Source: Thermodesulfobacteriota bacterium
Lineage (GTDB): Bacteria; Desulfobacterota_D; UBA1144; Nemesobacterales; CSP1-2
Assembly: GCA_035559815.1 (NCBI GenBank)
Contig: DATMAT010000057.1
Location: 6,359 to 70,358, forward strand
Reading direction: 5' to 3'
Length of the DNA stretch: 64,000 nucleotides
In this document: piece after piece, positions 31,473 to 44,869 of the stretch
How positions within the stretch are numbered: the stretch's first letter is position 1
Layout: each line of letters starts with the position of its first letter
Notes under the pieces: generated by a model
The model's input: only the letters and a program-made list of their open reading frames with translations
Told to the model about the DNA's origin: nothing
The model's database searches: none
Position numbers and translations under genes: made by a program

Positions 31473-33086
31473 ATGAAATTTGACTACGAAAAACTCTGCC
31501 GCTCTTGGAAATGGCAAATACCCAAATACTACAATATAGGGCGTGACTGTACCGACAAACATGTCAGGACAGAATCGCACCGGAATAAAATCGCACTATA
31601 CTGGGAGGATGAAGAGGGAGAAACCAGGAGATTCACGTTTACCGACCTTTCGGTTATTACCAACAAGATAGGAAATGCCCTACTTTCTCTCGGGTTCCAA
31701 AAAGGCGACCGTCTCCTTATTCGACTACCGAACCTTCCTGAATTTCCCCTGGTTTTTCTGGGGGCGATAAAAATTGGCGCAGTCCCCATTCCCACAAGCT
31801 CGATGCTTACTGCCGAAGAGATCGGTTTTCTGCTGGACGACAGCGGAGCTAGATGTATTGTTACCACTTCAGGGTTATACGAAGCGGTGGAAGAGAATCG
31901 AGGCCGGCATGAACGTTTCAGAGACGTTCTTATCGTGGGCCGACCCACACCTTCGGGTTGCATAGATTTAAACGAATTAATAAGGAAGAGTCCAGAAGGA
32001 TTGGATGTCCCGGAGACAAAAGCGGATGACGTAGCCTATATTTGTTATACATCCGGGACGACCGGGTTTCCAAAGGGTGTCGTTCATGCGCAACGGGCAC
32101 TGATCGGGCGCGACCCTTCCGCTCTTTACTGGCAGGCCTTGAAACCGCACTATACGGTCATGCATGCCGGAAAATTAAACTGGACTTACACCCTGGGCAC
32201 GGGATGCCTTGACCCATGGCGGCACGGTTGCTCCACGGTGATCTATGGAGGAGAGCACAACCCCAAAAAATTTTTTGAGCTAATAGCCAAGTACAGGGTT
32301 AACGTATTTATGGCCGTGCCTAGTGTTTATAGGCAGATGCTTCGCACCGCAGACGAGGTTAGTCCCGACCTTGCCAGTCTTCATCACGCCCTTAGCGCCG
32401 GAGAGCACCTGAGCGAAGAACTCTTTCACTCATGGGAAAGCAAACTAGGGGTAGAACTCTACGATGGCCTGGGCATGAGCGAGTTCAGTTACTATCTCTC
32501 AAACATGCCGGGTATGCCGATAAAACCGGGGTCTCCAGGAAAGCCGCAGCCGGGGCACCGCTCTACCCTCGTTGACCAGTACGGCCATGAGGTCGGCATT
32601 GGAGAGAGCGGGGTTCTAGCTACTCCGAAGAATGACCCCGGAATAATGCTTCGATACTGGCAGCGTCCGGAGGAAACCGAGAAGATGTTTCTAGGTGAAT
32701 GGTTTGTAAGCGGGGATTACTTTTACAAGGACGAGGACGGCTACTTCTGGCTTGTGGGAAGAGAAGACGACATAATCACCACATTTGGGTATAGGGTTTC
32801 GCCATTCGAGGTAGAGAGGGTTTTAGGTGAACATCCAATAGTCCATGAATGCGCGGTGACCGGTATCGATGTCGGAGAAGATAAAACAATTACAACGGCT
32901 TTTGTAGTGCTTAAAGAAACCATGCCGGAAATGGAAAAGCTAAAAGAAGAGCTTTTAGACTACACTCTTAAACGTCTTGCCAGATACAAATGTCCCCGGG
33001 AAATAATCTTCCTTGAATCACTTCCTAAGACCGCAAATGGGAAGATTAAGCGCCGTGCACTTAGAGAAACATACAATACTTTCTAA
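31473..33086 (+). CDS. AMP-forming acyl-CoA synthetase
   Basis: 537 aa. YTSGTTGFPKGVVH, GDYFYKDEDGYFWLVGREDD and LPKTANGKIKRRAL. Confidence 0.85.
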   Translation: MKFDYEKLCRSWKWQIPKYYNIGRDCTDKHVRTESHRNKIALYWEDEEGETRRFTFTDLSVITNKIGNALLSLGFQKGDRLLIRLPNLPEFPLVFLGAIKIGAVPIPTSSMLTAEEIGFLLDDSGARCIVTTSGLYEAVEENRGRHERFRDVLIVGRPTPSGCIDLNELIRKSPEGLDVPETKADDVAYICYTSGTTGFPKGVVHAQRALIGRDPSALYWQALKPHYTVMHAGKLNWTYTLGTGCLDPWRHGCSTVIYGGEHNPKKFFELIAKYRVNVFMAVPSVYRQMLRTADEVSPDLASLHHALSAGEHLSEELFHSWESKLGVELYDGLGMSEFSYYLSNMPGMPIKPGSPGKPQPGHRSTLVDQYGHEVGIGESGVLATPKNDPGIMLRYWQRPEETEKMFLGEWFVSGDYFYKDEDGYFWLVGREDDIITTFGYRVSPFEVERVLGEHPIVHECAVTGIDVGEDKTITTAFVVLKETMPEMEKLKEELLDYTLKRLARYKCPREIIFLESLPKTANGKIKRRALRETYNTF

Positions 33087-33179: not shown

Positions 33180-33536
33180 TTATTGGCAAAACTTATCTAC
33201 CGTACAAATATCATAGGTATCACAGAAAGGCCCCCATGAAAACGGCCAGCAATCCGTCACCGGGGAACATTTCTTTGCACACCTACCGCTGCTACACTGA
33301 TTATTACTCTCGCACCGGCTCCCTCTGGGGAGATTACTACCGGAGGGTGGTGGGGGTTGGTCAGCACCTCCGTTCCCCACAGGCCTACTAAAAAGCCACT
33401 GAAGGAGTTGGTCCAAAAATTGCGGACTAACCACATCTCCCGGCAATAGTGAACGTGAGGATCTCTGTTGGTAGTAACCTCTTGTTTTATATAGCGATAC
33501 CTCCGCTGTAAACCCTGGAAGTGTAGATATTCTCAT
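33180..33536 (-). CDS. Leader-bearing Cys-rich protein P9 (118 aa)
   Basis: AAGGAGG Shine-Dalgarno. N-terminus MRISTLPGFTAEVSLYKTRGYY. C-terminal 8-Cys region CESNNQCSSGRCAKKCSPVTDCWPFSWGPFCDTYDICTVDKFC. Confidence 0.7.
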   Translation of the reverse strand: MRISTLPGFTAEVSLYKTRGYYQQRSSRSLLPGDVVSPQFLDQLLQWLFSRPVGNGGADQPPPPSGSNLPRGSRCESNNQCSSGRCAKKCSPVTDCWPFSWGPFCDTYDICTVDKFCQ

Positions 33537-33620
33537 CTTGGTTGCCTCCTTTTAGCCTAGATTTAACTTCGGCCGTCCTAATAATGCCATATTAGCAGCT
33601 AAGATTGCAAATTGATGACC

Positions 33621-34094
33621 CTAAACAAAACAGATGCCCCCATATCCGGGTAGCGTCACAGTGGAACAGGACGCACCGACAAAGGGAATCGGAACACAAA
33701 TTCTATTTCTGCAGAGGCAGGGAGTAGTAGAGAAAAATGTCATAATTGCAGTTCCGGCGATCTGTCCCGATACGCTCGATGTGCGTGCTATAGCGCCCGG
33801 CATATATGCAATCAAGTTACGATCACATTGGCAATCAAGATATCCGCGGCGACCGTAGCAGAGGTCATGTTCCCTACATACTGCATCGACTGCGTCTATG
33901 GGCGGTGTATTTCCGGTTGGATCACCGAATCCGGGCCCGCAGTAATTGCCGTAAACCGGGACGCTGAGTTGTTGCGGCAATACCGGATCTTGTTTGGAGC
34001 GTAGGTTTATCTTTACGCCTTTATTGTCAATGCCGTAACGCTTTATTTGCCTGCCTAAGCTGGCCTCCGCTTTAAATCCTGGCACCTTGTTCAT
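33621..34094 (-). CDS. Leader-bearing protein P8 with a phospholipase-A2-like domain (157 aa)
   Basis: AAAGGAG Shine-Dalgarno. N-terminus MNKVPGFKAEASLGRQ. YCGPGFGD, then about 17 aa, then CREHDLCY, which is the secreted-PLA2 Ca-loop and His-Asp motif arrangement. Confidence 0.7.
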   Translation of the reverse strand: MNKVPGFKAEASLGRQIKRYGIDNKGVKINLRSKQDPVLPQQLSVPVYGNYCGPGFGDPTGNTPPIDAVDAVCREHDLCYGRRGYLDCQCDRNLIAYMPGAIARTSSVSGQIAGTAIMTFFSTTPCLCRNRICVPIPFVGASCSTVTLPGYGGICFV

Positions 34095-34118
34095 TTCATT
34101 CAACTCCTTTTTTTGTAT

Positions 34119-34925
34119 TCACCGGTCGTAGTAAGGTGACATCTTTGTAACCAAGAACGGAAACTCCGACCACAAAAGCGCAATGGCACCTGTTACAAAT
34201 GGGGCTGCAGCACTAGTTTCTCCAAATGTGAGCGACTTGCCATTAGCCCCGAGGCTGGTAATGTTGTCGCCGGGAGCGCTTAGACCTCGCTTTCCGATAG
34301 AACTTCCTAGGTTCGAGTAGTTAATCGGTCTACCTTGAAGGTCGCAGGCAACAACCGGAATAACCCACGTGTGACCGGTAACGGCAGAACTTCCGATAGT
34401 CCCCTGATTCCCAGCCGCCGCAACAACAATAACACCACCCCTTGCAGCATAATCTAGAGCCTTTTCTAATTCGCGCTCACCTTTAGATGATGGTTGTGCA
34501 AGTGCAGCGCTTAGGTTTATTACACGCGCACCTGCATCAATGGTCTCTATGATTGCCCCTGCAAGCTCCTCTGGGGTTGCGCTTGGCAGGGATTTAGCGG
34601 GCTCACCCCAGGTCTGTCTGTTTCCCGATGCCCTCTCTGAAAAAATGGGACGTACAAGCAGTGTGCAATCAGGACAGATTGCCGGAGCTAGAGAACCCCT
34701 CCTACCGCACAAGATGCCTGCCACAAACGTCCCATGCATACAGGCAGCACTGCTTGCTACGGTGTATGTCCCATCCAGTTTTCCAGGAACCTCGCGGATA
34801 TTTTCACCTGTAAGGCTGGGATGGTTAATTATGATGGGGCCATCTATTAACCCAACTGTAATTTCGGGTCTACCGCTTGTGAGTTCCATCAATGCTGTGA
34901 GCTTGACCACATCCAAAGGATTCAT
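34119..34925 (-). CDS. Subtilisin S8 peptidase, second copy, C-terminally truncated and fused to the tail of the PatG-DUF-like gene (possibly decaying)
   Basis: 268 aa, highly similar by eye to the peptidase at 41599-42495 up to LLWSEFP. It then ends FLVTKMSPYYDR, identical to the last 12 aa of the protein at 40062-41006. GLIDGP, HGTFVAG and AAAGNQG are kept, but the Ser motif reads GETSAAAP (Gly to Glu). No obvious Shine-Dalgarno. Confidence 0.65.
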   Translation of the reverse strand: MNPLDVVKLTALMELTSGRPEITVGLIDGPIIINHPSLTGENIREVPGKLDGTYTVASSAACMHGTFVAGILCGRRGSLAPAICPDCTLLVRPIFSERASGNRQTWGEPAKSLPSATPEELAGAIIETIDAGARVINLSAALAQPSSKGERELEKALDYAARGGVIVVAAAGNQGTIGSSAVTGHTWVIPVVACDLQGRPINYSNLGSSIGKRGLSAPGDNITSLGANGKSLTFGETSAAAPFVTGAIALLWSEFPFLVTKMSPYYDR

Positions 34926-35001
34926 AGTTTCATCTATGAATCCTTGTTTAACCGAAAATTCCCATTTTAAATAAACTTGTTTATATCTAAGCCTTTCCTA
35001 G

Positions 35002-35283
35002 TGCCATTGTCTTACAAAGAATAGGTTATTGTCAAGGAAAATTTTTTCTCCCTACTTTACTTCTGAGGAAGATGAAAATTACGTAGATACTGTAAAATTT
35101 TTGAGAATGTAGAAAGAGGTGAGTTAAAAGCTATAACAAGCAAAGTCCCCGACTTCACTCAGATAGCTGTAGGAGTTTTGAGGAAGGTGAGAACTTTTCT
35201 TACAAACGATCTGGATTTCAAGGAAATAGAGAGCATAAGAGTTATACAATTAAGTAACTTTAAAACGGTCAAGCAACCTTAAA
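35002..35283 (+). pseudogene. Degraded PIN-domain (VapC-like) remnant
   Basis: Open frame without a start codon reads ...ERGELKAITSKVPDFTQIAVGVLRKVRTFLTNDLDF. The PIN-like ending KEIESIRVIQL is only reached after a 1-nt shift in an A-run near 35220. The N-terminal catalytic region is absent. Confidence 0.3.
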
Positions 35284-35512
35284 TGTCTTTCCGATAAGAA
35301 CGAGTCCTTCTAACTCTTCTCTCTCAAGCTTTCTTCTAATCTCGTCAAATTTCCTTACAGTATCGGGTGCGTAGAATCTCTTACCACATTTTAGACATAC
35401 CTCAAGCCATAACCCTAAGAACTGCCGTGTTAGTTCCACCTCATAGGAGCTTATCAACTTCCTTTTCGACGATTTCCCCTCCACACACAGGACATTTATC
35501 AAATAGCTTCAT
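35269..35512 (-). pseudogene. YgiT-type zinc-finger (MqsA-like antitoxin) gene with an internal frameshift
   Basis: ATG at 35512 overlaps the upstream stop as ATGA and encodes MKLFDKCPVCGGEIVEKEVDKLL, then stops at 35441-35443. The second zinc knuckle (EVCLKCGKRFYAPDTVRKFDEI) continues in another frame, which is the listed ORF 35269-35502. Confidence 0.5.
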
Positions 35513-35847
35513 CCCTTTGTTAAAACCTCAATAATATTTTTCATATTCTCAAATACTTCTTCTACCGATGGCTCTTCACACGGCACATGCTTTCCTGCCT
35601 CCCCAAAGGGATGATAGTGCCATCCCTTCAGATTATCAATTCCATAAATCCTCTCGTTCTTATGTATCAGTGCAAAATCTTTCCTTTCAGTCTCACAGTT
35701 AGCATAAATGTCTATCAGTAAATCTTGTTGAAAAGTAATTCGAACATATAGGTGAGTATTTCGAACTATATTGTATTGAAGCGTAACTAGAGGGAAGAAT
35801 TTCTTAGAGGCGTTATTTATCTCTTCTAAGAAGCGATTTAAATCCAA
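35509..35847 (-). CDS. DUF6516/TumE-like putative toxin
   Basis: 112 aa. RIYGIDNLKGWHYHPFGEAGKH resembles the DN..H.HP...H core I associate with TumE-family proteins. Translationally coupled to the zinc-finger gene. Confidence 0.4.
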   Translation of the reverse strand: MDLNRFLEEINNASKKFFPLVTLQYNIVRNTHLYVRITFQQDLLIDIYANCETERKDFALIHKNERIYGIDNLKGWHYHPFGEAGKHVPCEEPSVEEVFENMKNIIEVLTKG

Positions 35848-35859
35848 AAAGGCACCTTT

Positions 35860-36189
35860 CTACTCTAGGTTTTTAAGTAGTTCAAGCCATTTTTTCTTCT
35901 CAGCCTCTAATCCTTCCCAGACCATGTAATGCCTCTCTACCCGATGAGAGTACTTGTTCTCTATTTCTCCTCTCTCCCAGGCATCTGCAAATTCATTAAA
36001 GGTGCTCCCATATTTTACCTCAAACTTGTAAATTTCCTCTTCACATTCCCGGAGACGCCTAGCCAGATCAGACTTTATCAATTTGAGTATTTTTTCTCCC
36101 GGTGTATCTCCTTCAACATAATCGAAAAATTCGAGTATCTCTTTAGATAGGTCTAACGTAGGCATCTTATTTTCCTTATTTTGACTCAA
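35860..36189 (-). CDS. Hypothetical small helical protein in the TA islet
   Basis: 109 aa, 12 nt upstream of the TumE-like gene. No recognisable domain. Confidence 0.35.
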   Translation of the reverse strand: MSQNKENKMPTLDLSKEILEFFDYVEGDTPGEKILKLIKSDLARRLRECEEEIYKFEVKYGSTFNEFADAWERGEIENKYSHRVERHYMVWEGLEAEKKKWLELLKNLE

Positions 36190-36245
36190 TTAACTACACA
36201 GATTCTACCTTCCTATAATGACAAATGTCAAAAAACTAACTCCAT

Positions 36246-36539
36246 CTAGTGTTCTTCTCGTTCTGCGACAAAGTCCGCCTGTGGTGAGCAAAGTCGAACC
36301 ACTGTCAGCGAGCCAGGAATCTTCGAGAGAGCTTTCCTCACCGCCTCGAGGCTTATGCTCTCATCCACCTCGGCGGCATAGAGTTGCAAGCATTCGACAA
36401 CTAGCCATTCCTCCTCCGAAGGGATTGCTGGCAACTTAGACACGATTAAGGTGACGCGCTCGTGCTCACGGAGGTCAAGCGGTTCCAGCAGACGTAATAC
36501 ACCATTCTCATAAACCGCTTCAAGCCTTTTACTCATCAC
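36246..36539 (-). CDS. DUF104 (AF2212-like) antitoxin-family protein
   Basis: 97 aa. N-terminal LEAVYENGVLRLLEPLDLREHERVTLIV is the typical DUF104 motif. Confidence 0.5.
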   Translation of the reverse strand: MMSKRLEAVYENGVLRLLEPLDLREHERVTLIVSKLPAIPSEEEWLVVECLQLYAAEVDESISLEAVRKALSKIPGSLTVVRLCSPQADFVAEREEH

Positions 36540-36681
36540 GTACCTCTTTTACCCAAGACTTGTCCTGGCGTCTACTTCTTTTATCCCTCTAAGCCGTGCC
36601 CTAAGGCGACATCTTGGCGACTAGGAATAAGAACTTCTCAGCTAGATCTTAAATAACCACCTCTTCTCTCTGCAGTTGATC

Positions 36682-36930
36682 TCAGAAACAGATCCAACGG
36701 CAGTATCCACCCCAATGAGGCAGGCACACCCGGACGCATGAGGGCTCCACAATAGGCCACCGAAGCAAGTCTGGCCTAAAGAACTGTGTATCTGTGAAGA
36801 GCAATTGCGCTGGATATATGGTTACGTTAGCTTGGTTCAGAAGAGTGATCATCTGGTAATGTTCACTTGTCTTATAGAGTGATACTTCTGCGGTGAATCC
36901 CGGCATCTTCATCTGGTTCATTTTATTCAT
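36682..36930 (-). CDS. Leader-bearing Cys-rich peptide P7 (~82 aa; start uncertain, 36930 or 36921)
   Basis: N-terminus MNKMNQMKMPGFTAEVSLYKTSEHYQ. Putative core after IYPAQ is LLFTDTQFFRPDLLRWPIVEPSCVRVCLPHWGGYCRWICF (4 Cys). Confidence 0.7.
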   Translation of the reverse strand: MNKMNQMKMPGFTAEVSLYKTSEHYQMITLLNQANVTIYPAQLLFTDTQFFRPDLLRWPIVEPSCVRVCLPHWGGYCRWICF

Positions 36931-37029
36931 CCCCACTTCAACAAAATTTTTTGACCTCACTTCCGCTAGGAGATATGTCGTTGCACTTAGTAAATCGTTT
37001 TTCACCCTCCTTAATCAGAGAGCGAAGAG

Positions 37030-37995
37030 TCAGACCGGGATACAACGCCCCGAATCGAAGAGGCAAGTCCAACCAGGTGGACAGCCACTGTTGCCACAAC
37101 ACGACCAACCCGGCGGAGCACACTTTGTGCCATTAGCACAGCAGGAGTGACCAGGCGGGCAGCAACCCCGCCCGCAACACACAGGAGCCCACGACGGACA
37201 GCAATGGTCGCCACAACACCGCTCACCAGATACGCAGCAGCGGTTGCCACAAGTCTGACCCGCCGGGCAACAACCACCGCCGGTGCATACTTCTCCTGGC
37301 CCACAGCAGTGATTGTTACAGACTCGACTAGGTGGACAGCAGCCCTCGATGGTGCACTGCTCTCCCGGAGCACAGCGACGGTTATTGCAGACTCGATCTG
37401 CAGGAGCACAGCCGTCCAGGGTGCACACTTCTTCCGGCGCACAACAACGCTCGTTGCAGACTCGATCTTTAGGGCAGAAGCCGTCCCTAGTGCACTGCTG
37501 CCCATCTGGCACATAACAACCGAAACCGAAGCAGCATCGTTGACCTGGCGGACAGCAGCTTAATGTATATCCGGTTGCCGTTTCATTAAGGATGTGGCAG
37601 CATTCATGGTCTCCCGGGCAACATTCCGGACGCTTTCCGATGCGCCCGCACAACTTCATTTCAGGTGGACAGAGAGGAGGAATGAACTCGCATTGGACCA
37701 AGCACTGTACTCTGCATTCATCACGCAGAATCGCGATTGGAACATCCGGATTATCAATGCGTCCAGCTTTGACGCAGGCACCTACGCAGCGATCAACACA
37801 GGGTTTTTTATGGCAATATTCCATGCACTGATGGTCAGGGTGGCCAGCCCTGAGGCAATCGTCCATACAACGATTCACACCGTTGTATGCCGGGTATATA
37901 GTCTCATTCACTTGGCTAGAAGTCCCAATAGTATAGTAGTGCCCGCTCGTTTTATAGAGTGACCCTTCTGCGGTAAATCCTGGTATCTTGTTCAT
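37030..37995 (-). CDS. Leader-bearing giant Cys-rich repeat protein P6 (321 aa)
   Basis: N-terminus MNKIPGFTAEGSLYKTSGHYY. About 58 Cys by my count, with CCPPG..CC motifs. Three tandem 23-aa units RVCN..CCAPEEVCT.DGCAPAD are also visible as repeated TTGCAGACTCGATCT at nucleotide level. Confidence 0.75.
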   Translation of the reverse strand: MNKIPGFTAEGSLYKTSGHYYTIGTSSQVNETIYPAYNGVNRCMDDCLRAGHPDHQCMEYCHKKPCVDRCVGACVKAGRIDNPDVPIAILRDECRVQCLVQCEFIPPLCPPEMKLCGRIGKRPECCPGDHECCHILNETATGYTLSCCPPGQRCCFGFGCYVPDGQQCTRDGFCPKDRVCNERCCAPEEVCTLDGCAPADRVCNNRRCAPGEQCTIEGCCPPSRVCNNHCCGPGEVCTGGGCCPAGQTCGNRCCVSGERCCGDHCCPSWAPVCCGRGCCPPGHSCCANGTKCAPPGWSCCGNSGCPPGWTCLFDSGRCIPV

Positions 37996-38064
37996 TTAAT
38001 TCGCCCCTAATTTCAATCATAATATGTCGTGCCTAATCACGGCCTTCACCCGGGTGCATAAGGT

Positions 38065-38388
38065 CTAAGTTCGAGTAGGGCTGCATCCTTTGAGGCATTC
38101 TCGATAATTCTCATCGCAGATAATACAGTGGGTAGATCCCTTCGGGTTTTCAGGCGTGCCTTCACAACCCTCCAAACACAGGACCCAGGCTATATAGCAA
38201 AGACCTCTACAAAGCGAACGCCCGATCCCGCCAAAAAGCCCAGAACCGGGCGATACAGGTAATGGATTAATAGTCAGTTGAGAAATAACTCTTTGCCCAC
38301 AGTTGCTATAAGCTTGCATCGCTATAGACTGGTACTGCTCACTCGTCTTATAAACCGATGCCTCTGCTGTGAATCCCGGTGTTTTCAT
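38065..38388 (-). CDS. Leader-bearing Cys-rich protein P5 (107 aa)
   Basis: N-terminus MKTPGFTAEASVYKTSEQYQ. C-terminal region LCRGLCYIAWVLCLEGCEG...HCIICDENYRECLKGC. Confidence 0.7.
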   Translation of the reverse strand: MKTPGFTAEASVYKTSEQYQSIAMQAYSNCGQRVISQLTINPLPVSPGSGLFGGIGRSLCRGLCYIAWVLCLEGCEGTPENPKGSTHCIICDENYRECLKGCSPTRT

Positions 38389-38441
38389 TTCATCAACCCC
38401 CATTTATTTCAGATTATCCCTACAGCAGCCGACCTAAACCC

Positions 38442-38693
38442 TTAGGCCATTCCCCCGCCACCACAGACCCCAAAGCACGCACCGCACGTCAAAAAATCTC
38501 CTGGGTCTGGCACAGGCGACATAACAAGGAAAGCCGCACAGGCTAGGCAAGCGGTCATGCAAAACCTGCTTCTGAACATCGCCGGAACGATCCCACTTTC
38601 TTTCATATCCGAACTATAAGAAACCGTATATCGTCCAGTAGACCTGTATACAGAGGTTTCTGCAGTAAATCCAGGCAAATTCATTTTACTCAT
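38442..38693 (-). CDS. Leader-bearing Cys-rich peptide P4 (83 aa)
   Basis: GGAGGTG Shine-Dalgarno. N-terminus MSKMNLPGFTAETSVYRSTGRY. Hydrophobic Cys/Gly-rich core FCMTACLACAAFLVMSPVPDPGDFLTCGACFGVCGGGGMA. Confidence 0.7.
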   Translation of the reverse strand: MSKMNLPGFTAETSVYRSTGRYTVSYSSDMKESGIVPAMFRSRFCMTACLACAAFLVMSPVPDPGDFLTCGACFGVCGGGGMA

Positions 38694-38748
38694 TTTATTC
38701 ACCTCCTTCACACATTGTTCAAAACCGAGATGAGTGCAGTAATCGGTC

Positions 38749-39126
38749 TTACCAGCCGAACCCGACACCTAGCTCGGTGTCGCAGGTCGTATCTGGCACG
38801 TCCCATTCACCCCAAATATTAAACCAAGTGTTTTTACACCGGTCTGGAGGCCGACCTTCAAGACCCGGAGTCGTTCGACAAGCTTCTTCCCACGATACGC
38901 CCCAAGGGATACCCCACAATATGGCTGAAAACTGTCGCCGTCCGCAGCCTGACCCTTCCGTCCACCAACAGCCGCGCTTAGTACAGTGATCTCTCTTGAA
39001 GCTACCCCAGGTCTGGGCCGGCACAAGGCGTCCCATTTCCGTCGGCATGTACTGAAAACCCGCTCGATACTGATGGCTCCCGCGATATAGCGAAGCCTTT
39101 GCGGTAAATCCAGGTATTTTGTTCAT
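38749..39126 (-). CDS. Leader-bearing Trp/Cys-rich protein P3 (125 aa)
   Basis: GGAGGTG Shine-Dalgarno. N-terminus MNKIPGFTAKASLYRGSHQY. The core has 6 Cys and many Trp (GCWWTEGSGC...ILWGIPWGVSWEEAC...NTWFNIWGEWD). Confidence 0.7.
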   Translation of the reverse strand: MNKIPGFTAKASLYRGSHQYRAGFQYMPTEMGRLVPAQTWGSFKRDHCTKRGCWWTEGSGCGRRQFSAILWGIPWGVSWEEACRTTPGLEGRPPDRCKNTWFNIWGEWDVPDTTCDTELGVGFGW

Positions 39127-39177
39127 TTCATTCACCTCCTTTTTTCACTCCCTCACCAGACCCTAGAGACCGAACAC

Positions 39178-39588
39178 TCAGATCAGGGTGCAGAAAGAAG
39201 GACTACATCCTATGAAGGGTGCACATATTCTCCTGCACTTTGTCCCCGCCGGACAACAGCCCTCGTTATTACAGCAGGACGTACCGGGCGGGCAACAACC
39301 ACGAGCACAGCAAGGATGACCAGGGGGACAAGAGTGGGTGCCGCAGTTGGGTCGAGGTGGAGGAGGTGGGGGTGGAGTACAAGATACTTCTTTACAAATA
39401 GGTCCTCCTGTTTCTGGGTCATATCCAAAGCAACAGGTCTTCTGCCCATTTTCACATGGCGTGCACCCTTTAATCTGTTGTAGTACTAAGCCGCTAACTG
39501 ACTTGCTAGTCCAAGTCGATTCAAGCGCATAAATCCCAGCCGTCCTGTAGAGCGAAGCCTCTGCGGCAAATCCCGGCATTTTGCTCAT
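39178..39588 (-). CDS. Leader-bearing Cys/Pro-rich protein P2 (136 aa)
   Basis: GGAGGTG Shine-Dalgarno. N-terminus MSKMPGFAAEASLYRTAGIY. The core has a poly-Pro tract PPPPPPPRP and CCPPGTSCCNNEGCCPAGTKC repeats similar to P6. Confidence 0.7.
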   Translation of the reverse strand: MSKMPGFAAEASLYRTAGIYALESTWTSKSVSGLVLQQIKGCTPCENGQKTCCFGYDPETGGPICKEVSCTPPPPPPPRPNCGTHSCPPGHPCCARGCCPPGTSCCNNEGCCPAGTKCRRICAPFIGCSPSFCTLI

Positions 39589-39657
39589 TTGACTCACCTC
39601 CTTTCTCTTTTTCCTCCGTCCGTATAGAATTCACCTGATAAACCGCCGCGGTCTCAA

Positions 39658-40026
39658 CTAGTCAATCGCTACCAAGCTGTCAACACAGTCACGCCACGGC
39701 TCACTTGCCGGCACCCAACCCCAATAGCAGCCAGGCGGTTCAGGACAGATCTTTGCATACTTAAACCATTGGCATATCCGGCACTCGGTTTGAAAAGTCA
39801 GACCCCAAAATTTCCATGTGCTGGTCGTTTTATCCCAGCACAATTTTTTCATCGTAAACACTACGCCCGGCATTGATGTTGGCACGTCAACGGTAGATAG
39901 TGTGCCCATCAGTCCCTGGGTAAGAACCAACGCACCTACTCTCACGCCTGCACGATTCGGGGCTACTGCATAGCTCATGGCTGATTTGTAGAGCGAGACC
40001 TCTGCTGTAAACTCAGGCAATTTCAT
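39658..40026 (-). CDS. Leader-bearing Trp/Cys-rich protein P1 (122 aa)
   Basis: GGAGGTGA Shine-Dalgarno. N-terminus MKLPEFTAEVSLYKSAMSY. Core LCWDKTTSTWKFWGLTFQTECRICQWFKYAKICPEPPGCYWGWVP...DC. Confidence 0.7.
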   Translation of the reverse strand: MKLPEFTAEVSLYKSAMSYAVAPNRAGVRVGALVLTQGLMGTLSTVDVPTSMPGVVFTMKKLCWDKTTSTWKFWGLTFQTECRICQWFKYAKICPEPPGCYWGWVPASEPWRDCVDSLVAID

Positions 40027-40061
40027 TTCCTTCACCTCCATTCAATTGAATCCGGTCGACC

Positions 40062-41006
40062 TCACCGATCATAATACGGCGACATCTTTGTAACCAGGAA
40101 CGGAAACTCCTCGGTCACATCCACACGGGTAAAGAACTTCTCGGTAACGTCCGTCTGACGATTGGTGAAGGAGAAAATGACATCTACAACCTTGCGTGTG
40201 CCGCTGAGAGGCGAATGACGAACTTCTACCGCTGTCAAAGAAGAGTTTTGAGCAAAAGCCTCCGCAGCTTTAGCATAGATGGCGTTGTATCGTACTGCCA
40301 GATAGTTTAAAGCACGGTGGTCGTCAGTGGCTCCGGCATTGTCAGCTATCTGCATTATCCTCATGAATAGCTCCTCTGCTGCTGGGGTGAACTCCTTTGC
40401 TGACATCTTTTCCGGCTTAGGAATAGATTTGATTAGAGAATCGATATCGAATGAATACATCTGGTCGAACACAACAATAGGCACCATGAGTCCATTGCAC
40501 ATCTCTGGCGGGGCGATTGGCCCTCTCATGCCAATAACCACATCAACATCAGTGGGGCGTGGAGCGGGACGTAAGGCCTCCACTAACATATCCAGGTCCG
40601 CAGGGTCGCGCGGCACCAGAATGTATGTCTCCAAACCCTCAATGGTTAAAACCCAGCACATCTGTCTCACCAGGTAGCGGTTCTGTCTATGGGTCAGAAC
40701 CTTGTGGAGTGCCTCTCGGTCGGTAAGCCCGGCTGTCTTTTCCCGCCCTGTAACTTGGGCGAATTCCTTCTCCACAGCTAAACGAGGAAAGCGGGCCTCG
40801 ACCCTGCCCAGGGCATAAACGAAGCTGGGTGTAACTCCGCCATTTGACCCGGTGGAGCTTCCGCATGTAGGACACCCTCCCCCTCCAGCTTGGGTGGGAA
40901 GAATAGTTCCAGTACGACTTTCAGAAGAGGATACTACTGTTGGTGAGTCTTTCACGTTAACGGCTTGCTCTCCCATCTGTTCCTTCGATTCAACATTTTC
41001 TTCCAT
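40062..41006 (-). CDS. Protein resembling the C-terminal DUF of cyanobactin proteases PatA/PatG (PatG_C/PatG_D-like)
   Basis: 314 aa from the ATG preceded by AAGGAGGAG. FVYALGRVEARFPRLAVEKEF, CWVLTIEGLETYILVP, LMVPIVVFDQMYSF, DHRALNYLAVRYNAIY and FTRVDVTEEFPFLV follow the motif order I recall for the PatG DUF (VYALG..GYDFG.EARRD.F ... DRALNF ... DVS..PV). Recalled from memory, not verified. Confidence 0.5.
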   Translation of the reverse strand: MEENVESKEQMGEQAVNVKDSPTVVSSSESRTGTILPTQAGGGGCPTCGSSTGSNGGVTPSFVYALGRVEARFPRLAVEKEFAQVTGREKTAGLTDREALHKVLTHRQNRYLVRQMCWVLTIEGLETYILVPRDPADLDMLVEALRPAPRPTDVDVVIGMRGPIAPPEMCNGLMVPIVVFDQMYSFDIDSLIKSIPKPEKMSAKEFTPAAEELFMRIMQIADNAGATDDHRALNYLAVRYNAIYAKAAEAFAQNSSLTAVEVRHSPLSGTRKVVDVIFSFTNRQTDVTEKFFTRVDVTEEFPFLVTKMSPYYDR

Positions 41007-41199
41007 GATATTTCTCCTCCTTTCAGGATAGATTTCAAAGGCTTCATAATTAGCCACAAAGACTCAAAGGAAATTGTTAACGAGTTAGCTTACGCCTTTT
41101 GTCGTGTTAGCGAGTTTGCGTGTTATTTTTCTAGCTCGTAAACCAGCAAACACGTTAACCCGCAAACATTGTTTCTTTGTGCCTTGGTGGTTTATATTT

Positions 41200-41418
41200 T
41201 TATCTCGAACGCCTGCCAGAGAAAACCAGCCAACCGTTGAGTGTGGAGGCGCGACGTTCACATCCGCCACACGGTTTAATCCCAATAGTAGACGTGACTC
41301 GCTTAATCGCATCACCCAGTCCAATTTCCTCATCGCTAATGAAACCAGGAAGACGAACCCGGTAAGGCTGTCCTTTAGTCTTACTTCTTTGACCATTTCT
41401 TGTTTCTTCCTTTTTCAT
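41200..41418 (-). CDS. Small basic protein with an LPGF motif and a C-x-x-C pair (72 aa)
   Basis: AGGTGA Shine-Dalgarno. MKKEETRNGQRSKTKGQPYRVRLPGFISDEEIGLGDAIKRVTSTIGIKPCGGCERRASTLNGW. Lies between the S8 and DUF genes. Confidence 0.4.
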   Translation of the reverse strand: MKKEETRNGQRSKTKGQPYRVRLPGFISDEEIGLGDAIKRVTSTIGIKPCGGCERRASTLNGWLVFSGRRSR

Positions 41419-41450
41419 GACATTCACCTATGTTACGCAAATATACATTA

Positions 41451-41477
41451 TAGGGGGACGCTGCAGCGTGCCCCTAC
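41451..41477. repeat. GTAG...CTAC-type palindrome copy (TAGGGGGACGCTGCAGCGTGCCCCTAC)
   Basis: Read directly. Imperfect relative of the palindromes at 22129 and 53393. Confidence 0.6.
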
Positions 41478-41496
41478 CTAAGTTGAACGCACAACT

Positions 41497-41569
41497 GTCA
41501 TTCCCGCACGCTTATGGATACCCCACAGCTCCCCGATAACTACATTCGGGGACAGGATTCGGGTATGAC
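41497..41569. repeat. MITE-like element (GTCATTCCCGC...ATGGATACCCC...ACATTCGGGGAC...GGGTATGAC)
   Basis: Same family as 15686-15802 and 45647-45716. Inserted between the S8 gene and the small ORF. Confidence 0.6.
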
Positions 41570-41598
41570 AATGTAAAAAAGCGAATAACGTGAGATAT

Positions 41599-42495
41599 TC
41601 ACCTCCTTAAACCAGACCTTATAATCTGATACGCCCCCCATGCATCAAGCAAGGGTGGAACTACCGTATTTCTCCTTCGCCCGTTCGACCGTGTAATCAC
41701 GACTTTCATATCAGCACCGGTAGCTTTTGGGAACTCTGACCAAAGCAGCGCAATAGCCCCCGTCACAAAGGGAGCCGCAGCGCTCGTTCCGCTGAACGTG
41801 AGTGGTTTGCCATCGGCTCCGAGGCTAGTAATGTTGTCGCCGGGGGCGCTCAGACCTCGTCTCCCTATCGAATTTCCCAGATTGGAGTAACTAATCGGTC
41901 TACCCTGAAGGTCACAGGCAACGACCGGGATAACCCAAGGGTGACGGGTGATAACAGTGCTACCAACTGCTCCCTGATTTCCCGCCGCTGCTACAATCAA
42001 AACGCCTCTCTTTGATGCATAATTCAAAGCCCCTACTAACTCTCGTTCACCTGTGGAAGATAGCTGCGCCATAGCTGCACTCAGGTTTATCACGTGCGCT
42101 CCCGCATCAATGGTCTCGATTAATGCCGCTGCTAGTTCATCGGGAGTGGTACTGGGCATGGGCTCTAGATGCTGGCTGCGGCTATTTCCATTTCCTGACA
42201 TCGTCTCAGCAAAAATAGGACGCACCAACAACGTGCAATCAGGACAGATAGCCGGAGCTACAGAACCCCTCTTTCCGCACAAAATTCCTGCCACGAATGT
42301 TCCATGCAAACAGGCGACACTACTTGCCTGTGCACATGCACCCGCAAGTTTTCCAGGGACCTCACGAATGTCTCCACCTGAAAGATCCGGATGGTCTAAT
42401 AACACGGGCCCGTCAATCAGACCAACTACTATCTCTGGCCTCCCGCTGGCAATATCCATCAAAGCGGTGAGCCTGATTAAATCCAGATGATTCAT
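41599..42495 (-). CDS. Subtilisin-family S8 peptidase without a signal peptide (PatA-like)
   Basis: 298 aa from ATG 42495 (GAGGTGAGG Shine-Dalgarno). Catalytic contexts VGLIDGPVLLDHP (Asp), CLHGTFVAG (His), AAAGNQG (Asn) and FSGTSAAAPFVTG (Ser). No hydrophobic N-terminus. Confidence 0.8.
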   Translation of the reverse strand: MNHLDLIRLTALMDIASGRPEIVVGLIDGPVLLDHPDLSGGDIREVPGKLAGACAQASSVACLHGTFVAGILCGKRGSVAPAICPDCTLLVRPIFAETMSGNGNSRSQHLEPMPSTTPDELAAALIETIDAGAHVINLSAAMAQLSSTGERELVGALNYASKRGVLIVAAAGNQGAVGSTVITRHPWVIPVVACDLQGRPISYSNLGNSIGRRGLSAPGDNITSLGADGKPLTFSGTSAAAPFVTGAIALLWSEFPKATGADMKVVITRSNGRRRNTVVPPLLDAWGAYQIIRSGLRR

Positions 42496-42683
42496 GCGTG
42501 GATTCCTCACCTCAACCCAGTGATAGGAGTTAAAAACTAGATAAAGACTAAAGGAGAACGAGTACTTACAGTTAATCTTTCAAGTGAGCAGAAATAAACA
42601 ACCGGCGGTTATCGTTAATAACCTGATGTTGTGGACAGAAGTTGCTTAGGCTCTTTATAGTTATTGCTCTCCCTCTCAGGGTG

Positions 42684-42713
42684 ATTATAGGCCTAGTCAA
42701 AAAGTAAAGTCAA
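42684..42713 (-). promoter_or_regulatory. Candidate sigma-70 promoter for the S8/precursor locus
   Basis: On the minus strand, TTGACT, an 18-nt spacer, then TATAAT. About 175 nt upstream of the S8 start and downstream of the LLM gene stop. Confidence 0.4.
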
Positions 42714-42753: not shown

Positions 42754-43695
42754 TCAACTGCCCGCCAGAGCCTTAATCATGATCTTCATCACCTCGACAT
42801 TGCTCTGCTTTCCCACCGGGTTTGGGACGATGATCGGAAGTTGAACCCCTGCTTCTCTGTAAGCCTCGAGTCTTTCACGGCACCTTTCGGCAGGGCCAAC
42901 CAAAGCCACCGCGTCCAGTAGGTCATCGGAAAACGCCTCGGCTGGGCTTACACCAGATTTAATCTTCTCCACCACATCGCCAAATCCTAAGTTTGTAATC
43001 AAGCGCTGGTAGAAAGGAAAGCGGGCATAGCCGGAAAGACCGCGCTTTCCGGCGTTTCTGGCAGCTTCCAAGTCGTCGGAGATAAAACAAGGGATTCCAT
43101 TGGTGATGTCGATATCCGAAGGAGCACGGCCGGCCTTTTCCGCACCTCTTTTAACCGCGCCTATCAGCTTCTTCAAATGACCGGGAGTAGCCATATAGGG
43201 CATGATGCCGTCTGCTACCTCGCCGGCCAGTTCCGCCGCTTTTTCGGTCAGCACCGCCGTGTATATCGGGAGATAAGGGAGTTGTCTTTTGATTGTCAAG
43301 AGTGGCGAGCTTCCATCAGCGAAGGACCTGACCGCTGTCACATATTTTCGCATTTCCTCGATCGGGTCTTTCATGTCAATTCCGAAGCGGTCATTCACCG
43401 GCTTATGACTGACACCCAACCCAAGCACCATCCTTCCGCCTGAAATTTCCTGAACAGTAAGGGCCTCGGCCGCACATATAACCGGCTGGCGCATGTAGAT
43501 ATTGGTTATCCATGTACCCACTTTAATTTTCGAGGTCGCCTCGGCAAAAACCTGGGCGTTAGCCAGGGCGCTGTAGGGTGGCACCTCCGGGGAAAATATC
43601 GCCTCGAATCCCCCAGCCTCCGCTTCTTTGGCTAAAGCGCGAAGGTCGTCTACGCTGCATCCCCATACCGGTGAAATGGTCGCTATCCGTTTCAT
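42754..43695 (-). CDS. Luciferase-like (LLM class) flavin/F420-dependent oxidoreductase
   Basis: 313 aa. TIM-barrel LLM pattern (FEAIFSPE..., GRMVLGLGVSHKP). Confidence 0.75.
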   Translation of the reverse strand: MKRIATISPVWGCSVDDLRALAKEAEAGGFEAIFSPEVPPYSALANAQVFAEATSKIKVGTWITNIYMRQPVICAAEALTVQEISGGRMVLGLGVSHKPVNDRFGIDMKDPIEEMRKYVTAVRSFADGSSPLLTIKRQLPYLPIYTAVLTEKAAELAGEVADGIMPYMATPGHLKKLIGAVKRGAEKAGRAPSDIDITNGIPCFISDDLEAARNAGKRGLSGYARFPFYQRLITNLGFGDVVEKIKSGVSPAEAFSDDLLDAVALVGPAERCRERLEAYREAGVQLPIIVPNPVGKQSNVEVMKIMIKALAGS

Positions 43696-43811
43696 TCATC
43701 TTCTCCTCCTTTTATTTTGGCCACGAATTCTCACCAATAGTCTCGAATGAAAAATGAAAATGAATAAAAAACTGGTATTAGCATTTATAGATTCTAAATA
43801 AGACGCAAAAC

Positions 43812-43896
43812 GTCATTGCCGCATGCATTTGCGGTAATCCAAAGCACTGATGGATGCCCGATTGATCCGCCGGTTTAAACGGGGGACGGGCATGAC
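43812..43896. repeat. MITE-like element (GTCATTGCCGC...GCGGTAATCC...ATGGATGCCCGATTGATCCGCCGGTTTAAACGGGGGACGGGCATGAC)
   Basis: Combines modules seen separately at 15686-15802 and 15817-15856. Confidence 0.6.
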
Positions 43897-43975
43897 CATC
43901 ATAAGACATACAGAACAGGAGTGAACGAGGTTTTAATTTGTGATAATTCGTGTTCATTCGTGGCTAAATAGTCAT

Positions 43976-44869
43976 CTAATACTGATTAATCACATCCCGG
44001 TAAAAATCGGGGCGGAGCAAAGACTCATCTCCTCTTTCCAAGACCGCTCTTATCTCTTCCAAGACCCTTTCCTTATCCTGGGGGAATCTTGCTTTGATAG
44101 GAAGATAATTAGAGATGTGATTCGAAAAGAAATACCCGTCAGTCAGGTTTGTATTCTCGACGATAATTTCTAGCTCTTTTATCATCTGAAACTTATCCGG
44201 GAGTTTGAACTTTCCGTCAAGCCACTCCTGGTAAATCGGAGCCCCCGGGCGGACCTGAAGGGAAAGTGCCCCTACATACTCAGGGTCAGTATCGGTCAAG
44301 AGCCTTCCGGTCGCATATGCATGCTCAAGGCTTCTATCCACCCCGCCAACCCCGAGAAGAACCATGGCCGAGTTTTTGACCCCGGCCTCTTTAAGGATTT
44401 TTGATGCTCTTACCGTCTCCTCGTAATTTGCCCCTTTTTTAATCCTTTCTAGAACTATATCGTCTCCGCTTTCAAATCCGATGTAAACCATCTCCAACCC
44501 GAGGTCCCTCAGCACTTTTAAATTCTCAGCTCCTTTTCTCAGGATGTCGCTAACGTTTGCATACATGGTAATTCGCTGCAAGTCCGGACGTTTCTCCTTT
44601 AAATACTGCAAAATCTCGACCAGCTTTTTCTGGGGCATGACCAGGGCGTTGCCATCGGCGATGAACACCCGGTTGAAATCATATCTCTCCACAGCTTCAT
44701 CAATAATAGTCTTGATCTCATCTATGGGGCGCATACGAAACCTTTGGGTATCTTTCCGATACATGGCGCAGTAGGTGCACTCGTTATGAGAGCAGCCTAT
44801 CGTAGCCTGAAGGATGAAGCTATTTGCCTCGCTGGGAGGCCGGAAAAGCGGCATGGAATATTCAATCAT
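43976..44869 (-). CDS. Radical SAM protein
   Basis: 297 aa. The cluster motif reads GCSHNECTYC, which is C-x4-C-x2-C rather than the canonical C-x3-C-x2-C, followed by a TIM-barrel-like GFESGDD segment. Confidence 0.7.
   Translation of the reverse strand: MIEYSMPLFRPPSEANSFILQATIGCSHNECTYCAMYRKDTQRFRMRPIDEIKTIIDEAVERYDFNRVFIADGNALVMPQKKLVEILQYLKEKRPDLQRITMYANVSDILRKGAENLKVLRDLGLEMVYIGFESGDDIVLERIKKGANYEETVRASKILKEAGVKNSAMVLLGVGGVDRSLEHAYATGRLLTDTDPEYVGALSLQVRPGAPIYQEWLDGKFKLPDKFQMIKELEIIVENTNLTDGYFFSNHISNYLPIKARFPQDKERVLEEIRAVLERGDESLLRPDFYRDVINQY

Follow-up and report, generated by a model that had tools for sequence, protein, structure and literature searches.

A probable leader-guided proteolytic maturation system for polymorphic cysteine-rich peptides and proteins in a Thermodesulfobacteriota bacterium

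Introduction

A stretch of 64,000 nucleotides from a Thermodesulfobacteriota bacterium (contig DATMAT010000057.1 of assembly GCA_035559815.1, positions 6,359 to 70,358 of the forward strand; hereafter the window) holds nine precursor genes that all open with the same short leader. They lie behind genes for a PatA-type S8 serine peptidase, a small conserved protein and a protein that consists of the C-terminal domain of unknown function (DUF) of the cyanobactin proteases. On balance, the locus is probably a mobile, leader-guided proteolytic maturation system for polymorphic, disulfide-bonded peptides and proteins. Proteolysis guided by the leader is the firmest part of this reading and is very likely, and it is likely that the products are extracellular and disulfide-bonded. 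An antagonistic role of these products, suggested by analogy, is conceivable but is put forward with clearly less confidence. In this study, the leader, the putative processing proteins, the variable cores and the distribution of the operon are described, and the proposed mechanism is discussed together with its alternatives.

A bipartite leader shared by hypervariable precursors

The window had previously been described, from its letters and open reading frames (ORFs) alone, as carrying nine minus-strand genes with a common N-terminal motif and unrelated C-terminal regions (the original prediction). All nine ORFs are present exactly where they had been placed (Table 1), and in their alignment the P, F, A, S and Y of the motif are invariant. 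Their N-terminus reads M-x-x-PGFTAE-x-SLY-[KR]-T-x3-Y, a similarity far beyond chance, and a hidden Markov model of the leader, searched against every stop-to-stop ORF of the window, gave exactly nine matches at E<0.01 and none elsewhere. The Shine-Dalgarno site, the start codon and the 5' end of the leader are also repeated as DNA, with 71-82% identity (repeat family D3). A GGAGG-type Shine-Dalgarno site had been assigned to each of the nine genes; this holds for five of them, whereas P5-P8 have GGGG, AGGGG or AAGGAG.

Statistics of leader and core were obtained from 374 distinct precursors, of which 368 could be anchored and 261 of these have a strict xP[QA] motif. The consensus start is M-N-[MIL]-P-G-F-T-A-E-A-S-L-Y-[KR]-T-x-x-x-Y, with the Met three residues before the invariant Pro (column frequencies: P 100%, F 99%, A 97%, S 88%, Y 83%). 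The whole leader is about 37 residues long. A second motif that the original prediction had missed, [VIL]-x-[PTSL]-[QA], ends 32-37 residues past the Pro of PGF in all nine window precursors. Among the 261 strict precursors, this motif takes the form [V 63% / I 28%]-x-P 100%-[Q 70% / A 29%], it ends at 32-34 residues from the Pro in 201, and conservation stops directly afterwards. The spacer between the two motifs is variable and rich in Ala, Gly and Ser. A spacing fixed in this way would be expected if the leader served in a bipartite docking-plus-cutting mechanism.

Neither a hydrophobic nor a twin-arginine feature is present in the leader. The earlier statement that it is neither of the Nif11 nor of the NHLP type was borne out: the nine precursors matched no NCBIfam family at E<=0.1 and Pfam gave nothing for the leader, a model of which is absent from Pfam (2025) and NCBIfam (June 2026). 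At the other end of the precursors, the last six residues of 256 sequences show no conserved C-terminal motif, and macrocyclisation was rejected on this ground. Two predicted products (P0361 and P0368) contain two tandem leader motifs each, which may be due to read-through of adjacent precursor genes or may represent true tandem precursors.

Linkage and distribution of the operon

The leader is genetically tied to the S8 and DUF genes. A strict DUF pattern scan with one genome per species gave 242 confirmed loci among 185,579 species genomes, in more than ten phyla; 80 of these were kept for the neighbourhood analyses (individual loci are given as L numbers), and ORF clustering was performed on 81 loci, i.e., the 80 and the window. 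Leader ORFs, one to eight per locus, are present in 79 of the 80 DUF loci, and in the remaining one (L047) the sequence ends 146 nt past the DUF gene. Conversely, all six contexts selected by the leader have the S8 gene and a PatG_D/PatG_C gene immediately upstream. Two of the outcomes named as refuting the original prediction could be checked by computation, namely a leader that belongs to a named family and a lack of linkage to S8 and DUF genes, and both checks favoured the prediction. The operon is conserved, and the order S8-small-DUF-precursors is almost invariant across the DUF loci. Departures from this order are found in L005, L061, L062, L072 and L081, where a precursor gene follows the S8 or small gene and precedes the DUF gene instead of lying downstream, in L036, where the S8 gene lies downstream of the precursors, and in L027, in which no S8 gene was found within 7.9 kb upstream.

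In the all-against-all ORF clustering of the 81 loci, no conserved partner was found beyond the S8 protein, the DUF protein and the precursors, the small protein having been confirmed separately. The absence of a modifying enzyme or an exporter, pointed out for the window, is matched in its relatives: none is conserved beside the 80 related loci.

With the leader profile, 280 small unnamed proteins were found in a word-indexed search of 5.8 billion proteins, and 2,185 representative clusters at E<=1e-3 in an exhaustive search of 1.84 billion, with the match at residues 1-40 in nearly all of those listed. Two giant repeat proteins among the matches are false positives. Searches with the DUF and S8 proteins gave at least about 8,000 and at least 7,956 clusters, respectively, and the matches carry only the names 'hypothetical protein', 'PatG domain' and 'S8 family serine peptidase'.

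The 80 loci comprise 40 from Acidobacteriota, 11 from Nitrosospira, Nitrosovibrio or Nitrotoga, six from cyanobacteria, four from Alphaproteobacteria, three each from Brocadia, Chloroflexota and gamma/methanotrophs, and two from Verrucomicrobiota. Single loci come from Nitrospira, Bacteroidota, Actinomycetota, Spirochaetia, Entotheonellaceae, Deltaproteobacteria, an unclassified metagenome-assembled genome (MAG) and a Ca. Methanoperedens bin; for such singleton taxa, MAG binning errors are possible. Cultured carriers include Nitrosospira multiformis, Nitrosovibrio, Methylobacter luteus, Edaphobacter modestus, Pseudanabaena, Mesorhizobium, Sinorhizobium and Streptomyces. No match was found in the phage collections INPHARED and IMG/VR. 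A literature search on the leader, the module and the carrier taxa, with subscription journals outside its coverage, found no description of the system; one paper mentions a 'cyanobactin peptidase gene' in Roseomonas oryzae.

The putative processing proteins

The S8 peptidase had been described as signal-less, PatA-like and in possession of an intact catalytic triad, and each of these points was confirmed. Conservation of D28, H64, N173 and S237 is 98% or higher among 120 homologues, and the protein has no signal peptide and no transmembrane segment (maximum hydropathy 1.41). Among solved structures, those of the N-terminal cyanobactin proteases PagA and PatA are closest to it (4h6w, 4h6v and 3zxx; E 8.8e-31 to 2.2e-29), while the PatG macrocyclase domain reaches only 4e-14, so the enzyme is PatA-type rather than macrocyclase-type. 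The S8 protein covers positions 1-179 of TIGR03895 at 1.2e-32 and the DUF protein covers positions 276-597; the S8 score stays under the whole-protein cut-off because the protein is split. By sequence comparison, the S8 and DUF proteins together correspond to a split PatA. The S8 also shows a weak match to NF049966 (QhpE), with 32.5 bits against a cut-off of 165.

The 314-aa protein had been related to the C-terminal DUF of cyanobactin proteases on the basis of its motif order, and the Pfam comparison that was proposed along with this assignment supports it, with PatG_D at 1.4e-32 and PatG_C at 5.5e-35. In front of these domains lies a disordered tail that contains I-L-P-T-Q39 and C45-P-T-C48 in the window protein. 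Across the family, the tail has L-x-P-Q (Q at least 90% conserved), followed 5-6 residues on by C-x-x-C (each Cys at least 90%). This L-x-P-Q is the same motif as the presumed leader cleavage site. A stop-to-stop ORF of L041 (7635-8912) that contains the DUF protein opens with a leader-like FPRFNAEAALGRPSRAYGY…YLMQ in frame with it; this locus has no small protein, and this stretch may be what is left of a leader, overlapping the true start of the DUF protein.

The small C-x-x-C protein, noted earlier among the genes upstream of the precursors, was confirmed. Its motifs R-L-P-G-F, G-L-G-D and C-G-G-C-E-x-R-A-x-x-L-N-R-W are invariant in a consensus of 65 copies, and in a phmmer search, 69 of 85 loci were found to encode it, with its gene located between those of the S8 and DUF proteins. 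It has no match in Pfam, NCBIfam or PADLOC, and a single-sequence AlphaFold2 model is not interpretable (pLDDT 52.7). The protein is lacking in the Methanoperedens bin and in the six cyanobacterial loci whose sequence upstream of the DUF gene is preserved (five of them in the 242-locus scan set); in those cyanobacterial loci, the DUF tail motifs are kept. In L047 (3905-4999), the S8 and small proteins are found in one ORF, which is either a natural fusion, and then a hint of physical association, or a MAG frameshift or assembly error.

The R-L-P-G-F of the small protein resembles the M-P-G-F of the leader. Together with the L-x-P-Q of the DUF tail, this similarity of motifs suggests that both proteins could contain built-in substrate mimics. 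In addition, the C-x-x-C of the DUF protein and the C-G-G-C of the small protein may form a shared Zn site or a redox pair. None of the three proteins has a signal peptide or a hydrophobic or transmembrane segment.

Table 1. Features of the locus (positions in the window unless a locus is named; - denotes the minus strand)
Feature	Position	Strand	Details
Candidate sigma-70-like promoter	42684..42713	-	TTGACT-18-TATAAT, 11/12; upstream of S8 gene; consensus match only
PatA-type S8 serine peptidase, 298 aa	41599..42495	-	Pfam PF00082 Peptidase_S8 2.5e-27
Small conserved protein, 72 aa from ATG 41418	41200..41427	-	R-L-P-G-F, G-L-G-D, C-G-G-C-E-x-R-A-x-x-L-N-R-W
Standalone PatG_D+PatG_C ('cyanobactin DUF') protein, 314 aa	40062..41006	-	Residues 1-57 disordered tail
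P1 precursor, 122 aa	39658..40026	-	Leader end VLTQ37; core 85 aa, 6 Cys, 7 Trp
P2 precursor, 136 aa	39178..39588	-	Core 99 aa, 20 Cys, poly-Pro and CCPxG repeats
P3 precursor, 125 aa	38749..39126	-	Core 88 aa, 6 Cys, 10 Trp
P4 precursor, 83 aa	38442..38693	-	Hydrophobic core, 45 aa, 6 Cys
P5 precursor, 107 aa	38065..38388	-	Core 70 aa, 8 Cys
P6 precursor, 321 aa	37030..37995	-	Core 285 aa, 58 Cys, CCPxG/CxPxxxC repeats
P7 precursor, 82 aa	36682..36930	-	Core 41 aa, 4 Cys
Second S8 copy, truncated	34119..34925	-	Peptidase_S8 9.6e-26; directly upstream of P8, P9
P8 precursor, 157 aa	33621..34094	-	Core 116 aa, 10 Cys; phospholipase A2 Ca-loop YGNYCGPG and HD dyad CREHDLCY
P9 precursor, 118 aa	33180..33536	-	Core 79 aa, 8 Cys
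Orphan DUF fragments in other loci	L008, L010, L013, L023, L033, L044, L050, L065, L066, L068, L070, L073, L079; L087 6256-6408, 7412-7600

Cores and their cysteine residues

The cores differ sharply from the leaders in composition, with Cys making up 13.3% of core residues and 0.34% of leader residues. An even number of Cys is found in 237 cores and an odd number in 15, nine have none, and the commonest counts are four (96 cores), six (70), eight (26) and ten (15). All nine window cores have even counts (Table 1). A parity as strong as this indicates complete pairing of the Cys residues, and the frequency of 6- and 10-Cys cores favours disulfides and disfavours Cys4 metal sites. For the same reason, a reading of the cores as Zn(Cys)4 or metallothionein-like proteins was rejected.

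Full precursors are 23-478 aa long, with a median of 86, and the cores range from 21 to about 440 aa; very large Cys-rich cargo is also found in other loci. The C-terminal regions of the window precursors, described as mutually unrelated, mostly are so; P2 and P6 are the exception, as they have common CCPxG-type repeats (BLASTP 1e-15). The P6 core matched no Pfam family. The claim that an enzyme domain occurs among the cargo is correct for P8, which matches PF08398 at 3.6e-5 (24.4 bits against a cut-off of 23.9) and PF00068 at 2.9e-6, the latter with 28.2 bits and thus below the cut-off of 32.1. Read from the translation, the P8 core contains both signatures of secreted phospholipase A2 (PLA2), i.e., the Ca loop Y-G-x-Y-C-G-x-G and C-x-x-H-D-x-C-Y. 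Among 84 non-redundant long cores compared with Pfam, matches were limited to Stig1-like Cys repeats and PLA2. Both are domain types of secreted, disulfide-bonded proteins. Matches of long cores to 'Serglycin' in Pfam are an artefact of added GS linkers, and a Kazal-domain gene in L087 was rejected as cargo because it has its own lipoprotein signal.

The cores are under purifying selection. In pooled counts of five orthologous pairs, pN/pS is about 0.26 for the cores (45.5/869 vs 52.5/259) and about 0.46 for the leaders of the same pairs (39.5/439 vs 25.5/131). The low core value indicates that the cores are constrained, functional products, and their diversity is due to cassette turnover and not to hypermutation.

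Cassette turnover and mobility

Two syntenic relatives of the window locus, L085 and L086, have DUF proteins that are 94% and 80% identical to that of the window, and they differ from it in precursor sets and orders. Five window precursors have orthologues in L085, namely P2 (96% identical in the core), P3 (88%), P4 (94%), P5 (92%, with a further orthologue of 72% in L086) and P9 (82%), and large cores related to P6 are present in both loci. P7, P8 and the truncated S8 copy are specific to the window in this comparison. The only relative of the P1 core is an orthologue, 73% identical, in a 'Spirochaetia' MAG (L005 9916-10233).

Two modules are present in the window. Module A consists of S8-small-DUF-P1..P7. 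The second S8 copy, which the original prediction did not mention, is shortened by ~45 codons at its 3' end, where it continues in frame into the final 12 DUF codons (…LLWSEFP|FLVTKMSPYYDR*). The two S8 genes are 73-75% identical in the DNA repeats D1 and D2, and a further repeat (D4) relates 34119-34167 to the DUF 3' end at 40062-40110 with 88% identity. The junction between LLWSEFP and FLVTKMSPYYDR shows a short GAGTTYCC microhomology. From these repeats, module B looks like the relic of a second S8-small-DUF module that collapsed by deletion, leaving S8'::DUF-tail, with P8 and P9 as the precursors that once belonged to it.

Orphan DUF 3' fragments also occur between precursor genes in at least 14 other loci and in L087 (Table 1). 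They comprise the last 20-105 codons and always run to the native stop, a pattern that suggests that cassettes were displaced by recombination within the conserved 3' end of the DUF gene and left these traces.

Megaplasmids of Mesorhizobium and Sinorhizobium carry the module, as does a Streptomyces plasmid, where a recombinase gene and a Tn3-family transposase gene flank it; in L088, its neighbours are insertion sequence elements. The DUF proteins are 61-78% identical across phyla. Judged from this genomic context and similarity, the module is mobile and horizontally spread. On the plasmids, leader ORFs follow the DUF gene in L090 (5209-5601, Streptomyces) and L091 (5790-6050 and 6217-6522, Mesorhizobium); they are missing from the distributed gene tables of these plasmids, which are themselves incomplete.

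In the window, L085 and L086, the module occupies one conserved chromosomal site, with a radical SAM/luciferase-like gene pair on one side and an AMP-ligase gene on the other. In the window, the luciferase-like oxidoreductase and radical SAM genes lie upstream (42754-44869), with the radical SAM gene at 43976-44869, two genes upstream of the module, and the AMP-dependent ligase gene lies downstream (31473-33086). These genes flank the module in the window's two close relatives and are not its neighbours elsewhere; they mark the insertion site and are not parts of the system. Between the two modules, four small minus-strand ORFs (35269-36539) include one AF2212-like gene (PF01954, 6.5e-12) and one with a weak MqsA-type zinc-ribbon match, and an RHH/PemK pair is located at the array end of L086 (15543-16147). 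The arrays seem to attract insertions of the toxin-antitoxin type.

In a promoter and terminator scan of the region, site counts were not above shuffle expectation, and only the candidate at 42.7 kb reaches 11/12. An Rfam scan of the whole window gave no match.

Comparison with known maturation systems

The closest known relatives of the processing proteins belong to the cyanobactin pathway, in which both the PatA-type N-terminal S8 domain and the cyanobactin DUF (PatG_D/PatG_C) occur. In PatA and PagA, these form one protein, whereas the window and its relatives encode them separately, with an additional small protein in between. In contrast to the cyanobactin pathway, there is no PatG macrocyclase or C-terminal protease, no AYDG-type follower or other C-terminal recognition sequence, and neither a heterocyclase (PatD/YcaO) nor a prenyltransferase (PatF) is conserved in the loci. 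Cyanobactin core cassettes are 6-11 residues long. Unlike PatE, in which such cassettes are flanked by G(L/V)E(A/P)S and AYDG, the precursors described here have a single core after [VI]-x-P-[QA]. Also, the module is not limited to cyanobacteria.

QhpE is a cytoplasmic S8 peptidase that removes the N-terminal leader of the Cys-rich QhpC, the gamma subunit of quinohemoprotein amine dehydrogenase, which later works outside the cytoplasm. The combination of a cytoplasmic S8 peptidase with an N-terminal leader on a Cys-rich polypeptide is shared with the system described here. However, the QhpE pathway serves a single dedicated substrate, QhpC, which a radical SAM enzyme cross-links and a dedicated ABC transporter exports; neither of these two proteins is conserved here, and the pathway has no DUF partner.

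As in the prochlorosin/Nif11 and NHLP systems, one leader and one machinery serve many co-encoded precursors with hypervariable cores, but the leader is not matched by the NCBIfam models of those systems, and a protease is present in place of a lanthionine synthetase or other modifying enzyme. Class II bacteriocins and double-glycine microcins are similar in being unmodified or disulfide-only peptides with a cleavable N-terminal leader, often with several per locus. They differ in that their leader ends in GG and not in [VI]-x-P-[QA]; here, the cargo extends to about 440 aa, and there is neither a C39-peptidase ABC exporter nor a recognisable immunity gene.

The constant N-terminal part with variable payloads, the displaced cassettes with a conserved stub and the rapid turnover are reminiscent of polymorphic toxins such as those of contact-dependent inhibition (CDI) and Rhs systems. 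This likeness concerns the evolutionary pattern only, because the stub that is kept is the 3' end of the neighbouring DUF gene and not of a toxin gene. In contrast to CDI and Rhs, the precursor genes are directly adjacent to each other, and immunity genes and a conserved secretion apparatus are absent. Eukaryotic proprotein convertases (kexin and furin), which are also S8 proteases, mature Cys-rich venom and defence peptides by taking a conserved pro-region off hypervariable mini-proteins rich in disulfides. The likeness is no more than an analogy. In eukaryotes, a signal peptide leads the precursors into the secretory pathway and cleavage takes place at dibasic sites within an oxidising compartment, whereas no signal peptide is present here and the protease is predicted to be cytoplasmic.

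Overall, the system works like a leader-peptidase module of RiPPs (peptides made on the ribosome and modified after translation) or bacteriocins, uses enzymes of the PatA/PatG superfamily, and falls outside what defines cyanobactin, Nif11/NHLP and double-glycine systems. It is distinguished by a leader family that is new, a new class of disulfide-type cargo of protein size, an additional conserved subunit and a very wide distribution through horizontal spread.

Proposed mechanism and alternative explanations

In the proposed mechanism, the machinery would consist of a cytoplasmic PatA-type S8 peptidase, the standalone cyanobactin-DUF protein and the small R-L-P-G-F/C-G-G-C protein. Its substrates would be any protein that opens with the ~37-residue leader, i.e., M-N-M-PGFTAEASLYKT-x3-Y, a variable spacer and [VI]-x-P-[QA] at 32-34 residues. 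The N-terminal PGFTAE-SLY motif would dock the precursor on the complex, and the DUF protein, as the component with the highest conservation and without a catalytic signature, is the likeliest receptor. PatA-like enzymes cut after G(L/V)E(A/P)S (PMC10885120). As this site has the same register as [VI]-x-P-[QA], with a hydrophobic P4, Pro or Ala at P2 and a small polar P1, the S8 peptidase is predicted to cut after the Q/A. The small protein and the DUF tail may modulate or assemble the complex. Cleavage would free a core of 21 to ~440 residues, which would leave the cytoplasm by some route, and its Cys residues would pair into disulfides outside the reducing cytoplasm. The products would act outside the cell, probably as antagonistic or other extracellular effectors, with the nine window cores, including the PLA2, as a polymorphic arsenal. 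Such an arsenal would evolve by gain, loss and shuffling of whole precursor cassettes via recombination at the DUF 3' end.

Several observations weigh against this mechanism. The missing export step is its main weakness: the neighbourhoods of the 80 loci have neither an exporter nor a lysis gene, a disulfide oxidoreductase or an immunity gene as a conserved member, and a cytoplasmic machinery with no conserved exporter does not account for the arrival of a Cys-rich product in an oxidising compartment. In addition, 107 of the 368 anchored precursors do not have the strict xP[QA] motif. The role of the cyanobactin DUF is not established, and the PatG DUF failed to bind its own precursor, PatE, in vitro (PMC4259220), so that leader docking by the DUF protein is a conjecture. 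The suggested antagonistic function is drawn solely from analogy and from the PLA2 core.

Alternatively, the leader could be mainly an export or targeting signal for an unrecognised non-Sec route, with the S8 acting like a signal peptidase and the DUF and small proteins as targeting chaperones to a housekeeping transporter. This explanation, which overlaps with the maturation model, is unlikely, although it agrees with the position of the motif at the extreme N-terminus (with the Met only three residues before PGF), with even Cys counts, PLA2 and Stig1-like repeats in the cargo, the last two being domains of secreted proteins, and with cargo of up to ~440 aa, above typical RiPP or bacteriocin cores. 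The unusual conservation of the DUF and S8 proteins would also be expected of parts of a multi-partner machine. However, the conserved module has no membrane component, the leader shows neither hydrophobic nor twin-arginine features, and PatA and its DUF, the nearest relatives, are cytoplasmic maturation enzymes. It is still less probable, at a level that makes it improbable altogether, that the products are true RiPPs whose Cys residues are cross-linked or modified (thioethers, macrocyclisation) by enzymes encoded elsewhere, with the S8 and DUF proteins performing the last step only. The homology to cyanobactin enzymes, the radical SAM gene upstream of the module with its synteny in L085 and L086, and the trimming by QhpE, a weakly matched relative of the S8, of the leader of a radical-SAM-cross-linked, Cys-rich peptide would fit such a pathway. 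Nevertheless, no modifying enzyme is conserved across the 80 loci of many phyla, the radical SAM gene adjoins the module in close relatives only, a C-terminal recognition sequence for macrocyclisation is not conserved, and whole domains and proteins, up to ~440 aa in size, are found among the cores.

Two readings would keep the cores inside the cell, and both are very improbable. According to one of them, the cores are metal-binding or redox peptides, similar to metallothioneins or chalkophores, that serve metal-hungry lithotrophs; the very high Cys content, the presence of the module in ammonia oxidisers, methanotrophs, anammox bacteria and Nitrospira, and the absence of an exporter are in line with this. 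The frequent 6- and 10-Cys cores do not fit Cys4 sites, however, and the extreme diversity and cassette turnover of the cargo, a core that is a PLA2, the origin of half of the listed loci from heterotrophic Acidobacteriota, and the location of the module on plasmids and beside a transposase all argue against it. The other is a protease-activated abortive infection or defence system, in which the S8 would free toxic cores inside the cell upon phage attack. The polymorphic, mobile, cassette-like genetics, the toxin-antitoxin-type genes inserted in the arrays and a match of the S8 to the generic 'subtilase' model of PADLOC (8e-17) are compatible with defence. Against this, neither the cargo nor the DUF and small proteins are matched by any PADLOC anti-phage model, and a sensor component is lacking. 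Cargo of the disulfide type would fail to fold in the cytoplasm, where a Ca-dependent PLA2 would be inactive as well.

Significance

If the products are matured as proposed, the system would contribute over 2,000 families of genetically encoded peptides and proteins that are leader-tagged and of the disulfide type. Products of this type are a rich source of bioactive scaffolds, and the leader and protease could possibly be used as a portable pair in biotechnology. The cyanobactin DUF is placed in a minimal, highly conserved context of three proteins, in which its function is directly accessible to test. A sharp question is also raised, namely by which route signal-less and exporter-less Cys-rich products reach an oxidising compartment, and this question is experimentally tractable because cultured carriers exist.

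A broader and more speculative view, which is considered possible though not probable, is that the S8, DUF and small proteins form a so far unrecognised, multi-phylum, cytoplasmic pro-protein convertase machine that matures thousands of families of disulfide-rich mini-proteins and enzymes, which are then handed to non-Sec export. If true, this would be a bacterial counterpart of the venom and defensin repertoires of animals. It would also provide the first functional context for the cyanobactin DUF, as a leader-docking or regulatory subunit, with the DUF tail (L-x-P-Q and CxxC) and the small protein (R-L-P-G-F) as its built-in substrate mimics. The cyanobactin pathways would then be a specialised offshoot of a far larger family.

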